This document shows, piece by piece, positions 32,185-38,438 of a stretch of 64,000 bases of DNA; the first letter of the stretch is position 1, and each line of letters starts with the position of its first letter. The position numbers were made by a program, and so were the translations under genes. The DNA is from Escherichia coli. GTDB lineage: Bacteria; Pseudomonadota; Gammaproteobacteria; Enterobacterales; Enterobacteriaceae. The DNA lies in assembly GCF_022846255.1 (NCBI RefSeq), contig NZ_AP025682.1; one strand, given 5' to 3'. Under the pieces are notes generated by a model, which did no database searches, was not told the DNA's origin, and saw only the letters and a program-made list of their open reading frames with translations.

Positions 32185-33744
32185 TTATTTGATATCCTTC
32201 ACGCGCATACCGTTGAGCTGTTCATCCGTAATGGTGTTGCCCGCTTTGAAGTAATCAACCACCGCGTGATAAACGTAATAACCGCCCGTTGTGTTACGCG
32301 CTTTCCCTTCGGTAAAGGCGGTAAAACCATCTCCACCATCAGCAAGGAAACTCTGAGTAGCAATGTGATAAACCGTCGCATCTTCAATGGGTTTGCCATT
32401 CAGAGTCAGTGTGATTACCCGCTGACCAACCGGCTTGCTGCTGTCGTACTTCATTTCCAGGCCTTTCGATACCTGTAAAACGCCATTGCTTAAACTTGCG
32501 CCGTGTTCCATCAGACTGCGTAATTGTTTACCCGTGAGTTCCATCGTCACCAGTTCGTTGGGGAACGGGAACGTACTGATAACGCCGCCCATCGTGATCG
32601 CCCCTGCGGGGATCTCATTGCGGATACCACCAGAGTTTGTTAACGCCAGTTGGGTATTTTTACCCGCTGCTGCCAGTAAAGCGTCAGCCGCCAGGTTCCC
32701 GAGGGAAGCCGATTCACCATAGGCACGTTTTAATTCAACCGGCGATTGCGCCACCGTTTGTTGCACCACTTCATCAAGCTTTTTATTCCAGCCGTCGATC
32801 ACCTGTTTCGTTTGCGGATCGGGCTTCCACTCGTCAGCGTAAATGGTTTTAAGCTCGAAGTTTTTCACCGTAAAATTATGCGGCTTCTCTTTGTAGTCGA
32901 GAACCAGTTTGCCCACATCAATCCCGCCGCTGTCAGTGGAGAGGATGAGCGTATTGCCGACTTTAATCGGTTCCGGCGTACCCACATGTGCATGTCCGGT
33001 GATCAAAATATCCAGCCCTTTCACCTGACTTGCCGTCTGAATATCTTTATCCAACGCGCGACGCACATCTGTGCCTCCCATACTGGACTGGCGGGCCGGA
33101 ACACCTTCATGGATCAGGGCGACGGTCAAATCAACCTTGCCTTTAAGTTCATCGATATAACGTTGTAGCCATTTAATTTCATCACGCGCCTCAATACCCA
33201 CTCGCGTGGCAGCAGATACTGTGTCATTAAAGGCAAATACACCGTGCAAACCTATAACGCCTATTTTCACACCGTCTTTTTCGATGATGGTATAGGGCTT
33301 ATCCCAGAATGATTTACTGCTGTTCTGATAAAAAACATTGCCCTGCACAATCGGGAATTTTGCCTGACTCAACTGTAATAATGTGTTGTCCCAGCCGTGG
33401 TCAAATTCATGGTTGCCTATCGTGACGGCATCAAACGGCATAGTATTCATAATATCGATAATAGCCTTACCTTTGGTCAGGCTGCTGATATATGGCCCGG
33501 TAAAATAGTCGCCCGCATCAAAAAACCATGTCGCTTTATTTTTTGCTTTTTCTTGCTTAACCAGCGTAGTGATATTTGCCCAGCCGCCAATATCCCGTTT
33601 ACCGTTCGCAATCCACGGCACTTTATAAGGCTCTACATGTGCATGGAGGTCGTTAGTATAAATAATGGTGACATCTTTGGCGCAAGCCCAGAACGGCAAT
33701 GTTAATGCGATACCCGCAGCAAGTATTTTAATTTTCATAAACAA
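32185..33744 (-). CDS. Secreted bifunctional metallophosphatase/5'-nucleotidase (UshA/CpdB family), paralog A, 519 aa
   Basis: Signal peptide [22 protein letters not shown]; metallophosphatase motifs [26 protein letters not shown]; C-terminal 5'-nucleotidase-domain motifs NSGGIR, FPFPN, GGDGF; absent from metL-metF interval in my memory of K-12. Confidence 0.85.
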
Positions 33745-33797
33745 TCCCTTTCAGTGAGATAAAGGATTGCTACATTACGTTCTGAAAGACTTATTTA

Positions 33798-33813
33798 TGT
33801 GAGAGTAATCACA
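33798..33813. promoter_or_regulatory. CRP-type binding site (TGTGA-N6-TCACA) in divergent promoter between paralog A and the zinc-ribbon ORF
   Basis: Sequence TGTGAGAGTAATCACA read directly; perfect match to both CRP half-sites with 6-bp spacer. Confidence 0.5.
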
Positions 33814-36778: not shown

Positions 36779-36818
36779 AATCTCATTTATCAGTCAATTT
36801 ATTTAACAAGGAATGTGA

Positions 36819-38438
36819 ATGAAAACAGCGCAGTGTACTTTACTTGCCGCAACATTGCTGACTATTTTTTCGACCTCAGTCATGGCGCAGGATGTCACGA
36901 TTATTTATACCAATGATCTTCACGCTCATGTGGATTCCTATAAAGTACCGTATGTCGCAGACGGAAAACGCGACATTGGTGGCTTTGCCAATATATCCAC
37001 GTTAGTAAAACAAGAGAAAGCCAAAAATAAAGCCACCTTTTATTTTGATGCTGGAGACTATTTCACCGGGCCATATATCAGTAGCCTGACAAAGGGCGAA
37101 GCAATAATTGATATTATGAATACCATGCCTTTTGACGCAGTATCAATCGGTAATCATGAGTTTGACCATGGCTGGGATAATGCCCTCCGACAATTAAGCA
37201 AAGCGAATTTCCCTGTTTTATTAGGCAATGTTTATCATAAAGAGAGTGAGAAACCCTTCTGGAACAAGCCCTACACCATCCTGGAAAAAGATGGCATCAA
37301 GATTGGTATTGTTGGGCTACACGGCGTATTTGCATTTAATGACACGGTCTCGGAGCTCTCTCTCCAGGGACTCGATAATGACAATAATAACCGATTTGAT
37401 AAATCTTCCGCGACCCTCAAGAATCAGGGGATTGAAGCACGTGATGAAGTGAAGTATTTGCAGCATTATATCGATGAGTTACGTGATAAGGTTGACCTCA
37501 CCGTGGCGCTGGTTCATGAAGGCGTACCGGCGCGTCAGTCCAGCATTGGCAATACAGATGTTAGACGTGCGCTGGATAAAGATATTCAAACCGCAAGCAA
37601 GGTGAAAGGATTGGATATTCTGATTACCGGGCATGCCCACGTCGGAACGCCAGAACCAATCAAAGTCGGCAACACCTTAATCCTTTCGACTGACAGTGGC
37701 GGTATCGATATTGGTAAATTAATCCTTGATGTCAACCCTACAGCTCGTACTCATAAAGTGAAGAGCTTTGAGCTGAAAACGGTTTATGCCGATGAATGGA
37801 TACCCGATCCAACCACACAAAAAGTTATCAATGGCTGGAATAAAAAACTGGCGGATCTTGTACGCCAACCAGTCGGTGAATCATCGATTGCATTAACTCG
37901 TGCCTACGGTGAGTCATCGCAACTTGGCAACCTGTTTACCGATGCAATGCTTGTCGCTGCACCGACTGCACAAATTGCGTTGATAAACTCCGGCAGTTTA
38001 CGTGCTGATATAAATGCAGGCACGATTACCTTTGGTGACATTACCAGTACATTCCCCTTCAAGAATGAACTTACTGAAATGGATCTCAGCGGTAAGGATC
38101 TGCGTAACCTACTGGAACACGGGGCATCGCTTACCAATGGCATCCTGCAAATGTCAAAAGGCGCAGAAATGCGCTATACCCTGCAGAAACCAGTAGGTCA
38201 GCGCATTGTATCTTTTAAAATTAATGGTGAAGAGATCGTTGATACGAATATTTACCATGTTGCGACTACGACTTTCCTTGCACTTGGGGGCGATGGTTTT
38301 CTGGCATTCAAAGAAGGGAAAAATGTCCAGGTCCGCGCCGGAAATAACATGTCCAATGTCGTAATCGATTATTTTAAGAAAGGCCACAAGATTACTCCTG
38401 CACAGGTAAATGAAATGCGGGTAGAAGTAAGCAAATAA
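36819..38438 (+). CDS. Secreted bifunctional metallophosphatase/5'-nucleotidase (UshA/CpdB family), paralog C, 539 aa
   Basis: [38 protein letters not shown]...; closest to paralog A but with ~25-aa insertion (ELSLQGLDNDNNNRFDKSSATLKNQ); 40-bp gap after paralog B suggests co-transcription. Confidence 0.85.
   Translation: MKTAQCTLLAATLLTIFSTSVMAQDVTIIYTNDLHAHVDSYKVPYVADGKRDIGGFANISTLVKQEKAKNKATFYFDAGDYFTGPYISSLTKGEAIIDIMNTMPFDAVSIGNHEFDHGWDNALRQLSKANFPVLLGNVYHKESEKPFWNKPYTILEKDGIKIGIVGLHGVFAFNDTVSELSLQGLDNDNNNRFDKSSATLKNQGIEARDEVKYLQHYIDELRDKVDLTVALVHEGVPARQSSIGNTDVRRALDKDIQTASKVKGLDILITGHAHVGTPEPIKVGNTLILSTDSGGIDIGKLILDVNPTARTHKVKSFELKTVYADEWIPDPTTQKVINGWNKKLADLVRQPVGESSIALTRAYGESSQLGNLFTDAMLVAAPTAQIALINSGSLRADINAGTITFGDITSTFPFKNELTEMDLSGKDLRNLLEHGASLTNGILQMSKGAEMRYTLQKPVGQRIVSFKINGEEIVDTNIYHVATTTFLALGGDGFLAFKEGKNVQVRAGNNMSNVVIDYFKKGHKITPAQVNEMRVEVSK

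Follow-up and report, generated by a model that had tools for sequence, protein, structure and literature searches.

Three genes for related 5'-nucleotidases lie close together between metF and metL on some Escherichia coli chromosomes, and they differ both in how far they have diverged from one another and in base composition. How did such a cluster arise, and what do these differences record? We examined the locus in a 64,000-nucleotide stretch of E. coli DNA (contig NZ_AP025682.1 of assembly GCF_022846255.1; 'the window' in what follows), in which the metF-metL interval holds five genes: the nucleotidase gene A, an open reading frame (ORF) referred to as ORF374, the nucleotidase genes B and C, and a gene for a Tsx-like outer-membrane channel. 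A first-pass annotation had attributed the unevenness to sequential duplication with subfunctionalization or to separate acquisition events. The reading that we prefer, with a probability of roughly 0.7, is a cluster of ancient paralogs, probably devoted to nucleotide scavenging, in which A and ORF374 are residents of the site and B, C and the Tsx-like gene form an old AT-rich block.

Divergence and age of the three paralogs

The amino-acid identity is 67.6% between A and C, 56.2% between A and B and 55.7% between B and C, and the longest identical peptide runs in these pairs are 36, 14 and 20 residues, respectively. The long identical stretches of A and C that had been quoted in the first-pass annotation are thus present, and B is the more diverged copy, as was stated there. 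At the DNA level, saturation of synonymous sites makes the number of synonymous substitutions per site (dS) not computable for any of the pairs. The longest exact nucleotide match between paralogs is 17-20 nt, and third-position identity lies between 0.3 and 0.6 along the genes, with values of ∼0.4 even where the amino-acid identity is 0.97. Identical peptide runs are ∼80% identical in DNA, and 20 of the 36 codons in the longest A-C run differ, which argues that the long identical stretches represent a conserved catalytic core under purifying selection and not recent exchange.

A species-level scan with one genome per species yielded 77 related loci, and a neighbor-joining (NJ) tree was built on 49 family members. 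The window copies of A, B and C fall into three separate clades, each together with members from other Enterobacteriaceae. The A clade, the C clade and the grouping of A with C each have a bootstrap value of 100, and the C clade joins a C-like sister clade that lacks the insertion described below with a value of 98; the value for the B clade is 72 and becomes 99 once a subgroup from S. arizonae and Citrobacter is added. As judged from these sequences, the three genes are ancient paralogs whose duplications are older than the spread of the genes through the Enterobacteriaceae and took place long before E. coli. Their uneven divergence follows from the order of the old duplications, in which B branched first and A and C separated later. 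Sequential duplication therefore holds in deep time, but not as an event within this genome, where dS is saturated.

Base composition, distribution and origin of the block

The reference for base composition was the set of 38 other window ORFs of at least 150 residues, in which the GC content of third codon positions (GC3) is 0.580 ± 0.037 with a minimum of 0.495. The GC and GC3 values are 0.478 and 0.513 for A, 0.469 and 0.467 for ORF374, 0.442 and 0.433 for C, 0.408 and 0.378 for B and 0.393 and 0.352 for the Tsx-like gene, with GC3 z-scores in the same order of -1.8, -3.1, -4.0, -5.5 and -6.3. Codon adaptation relative to the pooled window genes gives z values of -0.3 for A, -1.6 for B, -1.5 for C and -2.9 for the Tsx-like gene. 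The earlier by-eye impression that A is nearer to the E. coli composition than the AT-rich B, C and Tsx-like genes was therefore correct, and GC, GC3 and codon adaptation, computed gene by gene, are not uniform across A, B and C. The ranking pattern recurs in Citrobacter sp. S2-9, with GC3 values of 0.315 for B, 0.331 for the Tsx-like gene, 0.461 for C and 0.600 for A.

The gene order metL-ORF374-A-metF is found in Citrobacter (many species), Kosakonia, Phytobacter, Kluyvera, Pseudocitrobacter, Superficieibacter, S. enterica arizonae and E. whittamii, and its retention in about nine genera shows that A and ORF374 have long been resident between metL and metF. Citrobacter sp. S2-9 and C. enshiensis carry A, ORF374, B, C and the Tsx-like gene in the same order between metF and metL. 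The dS values between the window and S2-9 are 0.92 for B, 1.06 for C and 1.40 for the Tsx-like gene, compared with 1.06 for metF, 0.96 for metL and 1.34 for katG. B is 92% identical to its S2-9 ortholog, with a ratio of nonsynonymous to synonymous substitutions (dN/dS) of 0.045/0.92, and C is 87% identical, with a ratio of 0.064/1.06; ratios of ∼0.03-0.06 against the Citrobacter orthologs indicate that none of the genes is decaying. Since the Citrobacter locus has the same genes at the same site with the same AT-richness and core-like dS, the compositional unevenness is old and stable and not the residue of a recent import. A gene of normal GC content beside genes of low GC content need not signal recent import, and the pattern seen here outlasts genus-level divergence. 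The composition of A would track that of its host, and AT-richness would be a lasting property of the B-C-Tsx block.

In a second arrangement, located away from metL and metF, ORF374 is divergent from A-B-(B')-Tsx-C (loci L008 6753-13792, L024 2624-11471, L023 and L028). Its hosts are Enterobacter asburiae, a Citrobacter species, E. albertii and one E. coli draft assembly, and C is 85-87% identical between both arrangements. The fact that one gene set is held together in two different orders points to a functional module. The A-B-B'-Tsx-C type of L024 was found in 0 of 5,426 complete E. coli genomes.

The metF-metL locus exists in three states among these 5,426 genomes: empty (as in K-12), with A and ORF374 only, or with all five genes (as in CFT073, 536 and an avian pathogenic E. 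coli (APEC) O1:K1:H7 strain). A is present in 1,843 genomes and the B-C-Tsx block in 658, where presence was counted at ≥80% of the block length and identities range from 96 to 99.8%; 558 of these blocks are at least 99% identical to that of the window and about 100 are at ∼96%. In the A-only form, ORF374 extends into the end of metL. When the window is compared with an A-only strain (L002), identity is 97-100% from metF across A into the start of ORF374 and falls to 70-75% over the 3' two-thirds of ORF374. This drop in identity ties the B-C-Tsx block to a deeply diverged ORF374 allele, and the ORF374 protein clusters (1,223 members at 99% identity and 1,611 at 78%) agree. The suggestion of separate acquisition thus stands in so far as A/ORF374 and B-C-Tsx have different histories, as seen from the genome counts and the breakpoint in ORF374, but AT-richness is no sign of recent import in view of the Citrobacter cluster, which shares the site and the GC3 ranking and has core-like dS.

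Relative to CFT073 and M1/5, identity is ∼98% over positions 32185-34200 of the window (A and the 5' part of ORF374) and 99.5-100% over metF, the spacers, B, C and the Tsx-like gene; this within-species patch centered on A points to allele replacement by homologous recombination on the A side. No flanking direct repeats, tRNA gene or insertion-sequence (IS) ends were found at the block, and a repeat search over positions 31700-39700 returned only the A/C and B/C similarity. Of the properties of a genomic island, the block has the atypical composition and the patchy distribution and lacks the hallmarks of mobility and of recent arrival. At the empty site of the K-12 type (L003 4155-4353), metF and metL are separated by ∼200 nt that are unrelated in sequence, with a palindrome resembling repetitive extragenic palindromic (REP) elements (GCCGGATTCG...AATCCGGCCTA) and an annotated hypothetical ORF of 44 residues. 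A-like genes also occur on Salmonella 'plasmid' records, which gives no evidence for spread by plasmids: the one record examined (NZ_CP019203.1; L089), labelled as a 178-kb Salmonella Infantis plasmid, contains metL, mscS, ORF374, an A-like nucleotidase gene, metF and katG, which is the chromosomal metL...metF-katG neighborhood. This record is either a mislabelled replicon or a plasmid with a large chromosomal segment.

Recent horizontal import would have brought the B-C-Tsx block and the 3' part of ORF374 into B2 E. coli from an AT-rich donor, with the GC content still un-ameliorated. The GC3 z-scores of -4 to -6.3, the restriction of the block to 658 genomes with 558 copies at least 99% identical to the window, the sharp haplotype transition within ORF374 and the increase of the Tsx-like transcript under TosR overexpression, which fits normally low expression, are all in accord with such an event. 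We nevertheless consider it unlikely, as two Citrobacter species have the same genes, order and site, with dS values that match those of the neighboring core genes and a GC3 that is just as low, a second block variant of ∼96% identity exists in about 100 E. coli genomes, direct repeats, tRNA genes and IS ends are lacking at the flanks, and no closer donor was found among 100,044 species representatives or in a set of 5.8 billion proteins, the best C from outside E. coli being 87% identical. A very unlikely account is that B, or B together with C, is a surplus copy drifting to loss, AT-richness and divergence being the result of relaxed selection. B is indeed the most diverged and most AT-rich gene, the conservation of the N-terminal domain is 0.81 in the B clade versus 0.93 for A or C, and the block is often absent; however, the reading frames are intact with all catalytic residues kept, dN/dS against the Citrobacter orthologs is 0.05-0.06, and B, C and the Tsx-like gene have been kept together in two gene orders across genera.

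Two processes within the genome would also yield uneven paralogs. We give next to no weight to an in-situ triplication inside E. coli followed by rapid uneven divergence (neofunctionalization or subfunctionalization after local tandem duplication), even though the three genes occupy one locus and B and C are in tandem with a gap of 40 nt, because dS is saturated in every pair, each paralog is closer to orthologs of other genera than to its neighbors in the window, and many genera have A but neither B nor C at this site. Scarcely more probable is gene conversion between A and C, which would keep parts of the two identical and account for both the long shared stretches and the apparent divergence of B. 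A and C do form inverted repeats of 71-74% nucleotide identity that are 3-4 kb apart, and the draft E. coli assembly GCA_001520995.1 (L084:3398-5011) has in the A position a gene of which codons ∼100-235 are 95-100% identical to C, the gene being A-like at both ends and C-like over nucleotides ∼300-700 including the 20-residue insertion. This mosaic, a product of either conversion of A by C or misassembly, was found in 0 of the 5,426 complete genomes, and its contig ends in C at the same breakpoint. Recent conversion in the window itself was rejected in view of the 20 changed codons in the 36-codon run and the flat third-position identity, and the A/C split recurs among orthologs of other species.

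Several points weigh against our preferred reading, a cluster of old paralogs with a resident pair and an old AT-rich block. The dS values, obtained by the Nei-Gojobori (NG86) method, are near or above 1 and are therefore noisy. A (dS of 2.25) and ORF374 (63% amino-acid identity) are more diverged from their S2-9 counterparts than are B, C and the Tsx-like gene, so that the cluster has not simply co-diverged as a unit; either the full cluster is ancestral and has been lost repeatedly or recombination in its flanks has carried it from one genus to another. All trees were built by NJ from a sample skewed to Enterobacteriaceae, and support for the B clade is just 72. Finally, matches to the CRP-type consensus are by count not significant (three observed and 1.5 expected), which touches the predicted regulation described below.

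The nucleotidases, the insertion in C and ORF374

A is 99% identical over residues 21-519 to PDB entries 3IVD and 3IVE, a structural genomics target of 2009 entitled 'Putative 5'-nucleotidase (c4898) from Escherichia coli', with complexes with uridine and cytidine. A, B and C align over their full lengths to NCBIfam nucleotidase models and have the two-domain architecture of the UshA/CD73 type; Pfam PF00149 (Metallophos) and PF02872 (5_nucleotid_C) are found in C, its homologs and all three nucleotidases of the Citrobacter cluster, and Foldseek gives matches to 3IVD, 2Z1A, CD73 and UshA. All three proteins begin with a signal-like helix followed by an A-x-A motif, and the alignment of A with the 3IVD chain begins at residue 21. 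The metal-binding and catalytic residues of UshA (Asp41, His43, Asp84, Asn116, His117, Asp120, His217 and His252) are invariant in A, B and C, as are its substrate residues Arg410, Phe429, Asn431, Phe498 and Asp504; the alignment near Arg375 and Arg379 is uncertain. Scores against the models of named members of the family are well below the cut-offs: 153.5, 167.3 and 157.4 bits for A, B and C against 600 for the UshA equivalog NF007109, 84-101 against 486 for CpdB (NF006938), 120-135 against 436 for NadN (TIGR01530), 117-197 against 1646-2801 for the YfkN types (NF006934-7) and 143-157 against 550 for SoxB (TIGR04486). By these profile matches, A, B and C constitute a separate, biochemically uncharacterized and largely enterobacterial subfamily of UshA/CD73-type periplasmic enzymes.

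The two domains have not diverged equally. Identity between A and C is 79% in the N-terminal domain and 56% in the C-terminal domain, conservation within the clades is 0.93 and 0.88, respectively, and clade-fixed differences make up 8% of the doubly fixed columns in the N-terminal domain and 20% in the C-terminal domain. The divergence of the C-terminal domain and the insertion in C are consistent with, and do not prove, a diverged substrate preference. The paralogs are in effect a natural experiment on substrate specificity in the UshA/CD73 family, in which one member already has a crystal structure.

The Asn/Asp-rich insertion that had been noticed in C is present in the sequence and absent from A and B, but its net length is 20 residues and not the ∼25 first estimated, as the segment ELSLQGLDNDNNNRFDKSSATLKNQ stands in place of five residues of A and B. 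It occurs in every C-clade ortholog examined (Enterobacter asburiae, E. chuandaensis, Citrobacter spp., E. albertii and E. coli) with the near-constant form ELS[IL]QGLDND[KN]NNRFDKS[AS]A.LKNQ, and is absent from the C-like sister clade, A, B and all outgroups. The conservation of the insertion columns within the C clade (0.935) matches that of the rest of the protein (0.942). An assembly artefact, raised at the outset as a way in which the insertion might be spurious, is contradicted by the presence of the block with the insertion in 658 complete E. coli genomes as well as in orthologs of other species. The constancy of the segment indicates that it is a selected feature that defines the C clade. 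In the AlphaFold2 (AF2) model of C, the predicted local distance difference test score (pLDDT) is 85 overall and below 50 over the insertion. A second loop, PARQSS.G..D (residues 237-246 of C; nucleotides ∼37527-37556), is invariant across the subfamily, missing in UshA and also has pLDDT values below 50; it may be mobile and functionally important.

ORF374 contains two putative CxxC...CxxC zinc ribbons (eight invariant cysteines) followed by a putative RNase H-like fold similar to that of DDE transposases and integrases. The zinc ribbons score below the cut-offs of the IS1/IS1595-type models (23.2 bits against 28 for NF050000 and 22.5 against 100 for NF033558), Pfam gives a weak match to Zn_ribbon_InsA (E of 0.007), PHROGs gives only weak zinc-ribbon and transposase matches, and Pfam searches with ORF374 and 17 distant relatives detected no significant catalytic-domain family. 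Homologs retrieved by a sequence search at 90% identity are largely from Enterobacteriaceae, and a profile search adds distant relatives of 400-530 residues that have an additional helix-turn-helix-like segment. ORF374 does not behave as a mobile element: it is single-copy, occupies the same site beside a nucleotidase gene in many genera and diverges with its host. As a single-copy, site-stable gene that lies beside a nucleotidase gene at all closer loci, it looks like a domesticated transposase, and our guess is that it is a candidate regulator. This consistent pairing of a transposase-like, uncharacterized protein with nucleotidase genes is of interest in its own right. It is not universal among the distant relatives, as shown by Citrobacter sp. 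FP75 (L033 2457-9530), where a relative of 25% identity has genes for an anaerobic sulfatase maturase and a sulfatase as its neighbors and the B-like nucleotidase gene is ∼4 kb away.

A bolder proposal, which we regard as speculative and decidedly improbable, is that the Asp/Asn-rich loop of C forms a new metal- or ligand-binding site and that ORF374 is a domesticated IS1-like transposase turned into a dedicated regulator that co-diversifies with the nucleotidase genes. If this were true, C would handle substrates beyond those of UshA-type enzymes, for example extracellular ATP, NAD or cyclic dinucleotides, and extraintestinal pathogenic E. coli (ExPEC) carrying B-C-Tsx would change host purinergic and innate signaling in the manner of CD73 and AdsA.

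Locus annotation, predicted regulation and proposed role

The features of the locus are listed in Table 1. The longest ORF for A spans 32185-33744 on the minus strand; the likely true start is the ATG at 33738, which is also the start chosen by the Prokaryotic Genome Annotation Pipeline (PGAP). The RefSeq annotations of strain M1/5 and CFT073 contain the same five genes, named three times as 'bifunctional metallophosphatase/5'-nucleotidase', once as hypothetical and once as 'nucleoside-specific channel-forming protein Tsx'. C_RS23130 is listed as c4894 in a published table (PMC5956150), by which the cluster corresponds to c4894-c4898 of CFT073; in the same work c4894 is up under TosR overexpression with a log2 fold change of 3.3 (PMC5956150). 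A literature search for c4894-c4898, 3IVD/3IVE or the C_RS231xx tags gave this TosR RNA-seq table only, with no functional study and no paper on the activity of 3IVD/3IVE. A GC-rich hairpin in the gap between the Tsx-like gene and metL probably acts as terminator of metL and forms the right boundary of the accessory block.

Table 1. Features of the metF-metL interval and its flanks (window coordinates)
Feature	Positions	Strand	Remarks
katG-metF	28404-31803	minus	left flank of cluster
Paralog A (c4898), 517 residues; periplasmic UshA/CD73-family metallophosphoesterase/5'-nucleotidase	32185-33738	minus	ORF and 3IVD/3IVE
Perfect CRP-type palindrome TGTGAGAGTAATCACA (TGTGA-N6-TCACA)	33798-33813		A/ORF374 divergent promoter region
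Inverted repeat CAACGA-N10-TCGTTG	33842-33863		directly upstream of ORF374 start; hairpin in terminator scan
ORF374 (c4897), annotated 'hypothetical/cytoplasmic protein'	33871-34995	plus	divergent from A
Haplotype transition zone in ORF374	33900-34200		sliding-window identity versus A-only strain L002
Conserved footprint upstream of B, AATGTT-N8-AACATT	35092-35111		within footprint 35092-35130
CRP-like site TGTTACTAAGATCACA upstream of B, one mismatch	35115-35130		consensus match
Paralog B (c4896), 516 residues; most diverged and most AT-rich nucleotidase	35228-36778	plus	alternative start 35225
Paralog C (c4895), 539 residues	36819-38438	plus	in tandem with B
C-clade-specific segment ELSLQGLDNDNNNRFDKSSATLKNQ	37353-37427	plus	C residues 179-203, loop of N-terminal domain
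Tsx-like outer-membrane nucleoside channel (c4894), 286 residues	38515-39375	plus	NCBIfam NF011686 and PDB 1TLW
GC-rich hairpin with T run, Tsx-like/metL gap	39473-39492	minus	terminator scan
metL	39593-42025	minus	right flank of cluster

The palindrome TGTGAGAGTAATCACA is the sole zero-mismatch match to the CRP-type consensus in the 64 kb window, and its half-sites are conserved, with a variable 6-nt spacer, at 15 loci of several genera. Its center is ∼41 nt upstream of a TAATGT -10-like hexamer for A (manual count), a spacing that would suit the geometry of a class II CRP promoter. Upstream of B, a block of ∼40 nt that includes TGTTACTAAGATCACA is nearly invariant between E. coli and the two Citrobacter species, within a spacer that is otherwise diverged and has a GC content of 28.8%. 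Other nucleoside-catabolism genes of E. coli are under the control of CRP (the CRP/CytR regulon), and CRP control would fit here. A by-eye look for a CytR operator beside the CRP site gave a single imperfect octamer only. The inverted repeat upstream of ORF374 is kept across genera with a variable loop and substitutions that are not consistently compensatory, and could be an operator or a hairpin in the 5' untranslated region. No Rfam match was obtained over the island at E ≤ 1. A hairpin at 35163-35179 upstream of B was dropped as it is not conserved in Citrobacter.

The Tsx-like protein scores 487.9 bits against NCBIfam model NF011686 (cut-off of 311) over profile positions 6-289 of 289 and matches PDB entry 1TLW with an E value of 2e-113. 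Taken together with the gene content and the predicted CRP sites, the likely role of the cluster is CRP-controlled periplasmic nucleotide scavenging. Under carbon limitation CRP would switch on both promoters, the Tsx-like channel and general porins would let nucleosides and nucleotides into the periplasm, the three secreted enzymes, with substrate preferences that differ mainly through their diverged C-terminal domains, would strip the phosphate, and inner-membrane nucleoside transporters would then import the nucleosides. The region is one chromosomal block that sets B2/ExPEC-type E. coli (CFT073, 536 and APEC O1) apart from K-12 and would probably widen nucleotide harvest at nutrient-poor sites rich in nucleic acids, such as urine and the inflamed gut. 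It is an ordinary accessory metabolic cluster, and current understanding is not overturned by it.

A genome paper of 2026 on APEC strain BEN2908 describes the region as GR31 (metL..metF), common to ExPEC and adherent-invasive E. coli (AIEC) and absent from K-12, lists the AIEC strains LF82 and NRG857c among the carriers and gives a functional reading like the present one (PMC12928451). Together, this paper and the structure of A, publicly available since 2009, already document the genes, the family to which they belong and their probable role. The passages of the GR31 paper that were consulted do not discuss how old the paralogs are, the A-only form, the Citrobacter counterparts, the insertion in C, ORF374 or regulation (PMC12928451). 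The present analysis adds how old the duplications are and in which order they occurred, what the insertion represents, where the resident and accessory parts are divided (at ORF374), the counterparts in Citrobacter, the stability of the composition pattern and the nature of ORF374.

The closest known system for the channel is K-12 Tsx (PDB entries 1TLY and 1TLW), to which the Tsx-like protein is 65% identical over 260 residues. The Tsx-like gene is a second, accessory copy. Housekeeping Tsx (L086 1130-2014), the Tsx-like protein of the window and that of the second arrangement (L008 11293-12159) are all ∼60% identical to each other, which may reflect separate recruitment of the Tsx partners or a much faster rate of evolution in them. 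For the enzymes, the AF2 model of C superposes on 3IVD with template-modeling (TM) scores of 0.87-0.94 at 67% identity, with the difference that C has a 20-residue loop that 3IVD lacks. UshA shares with A, B and C the same two domains, the metal, catalytic and base-stacking residues and the signal peptide, with Foldseek E values of 1e-40 to 1e-47; however, the sequence identity is just 25-27%, and Gln254 of UshA is replaced by histidine in all three paralogs.

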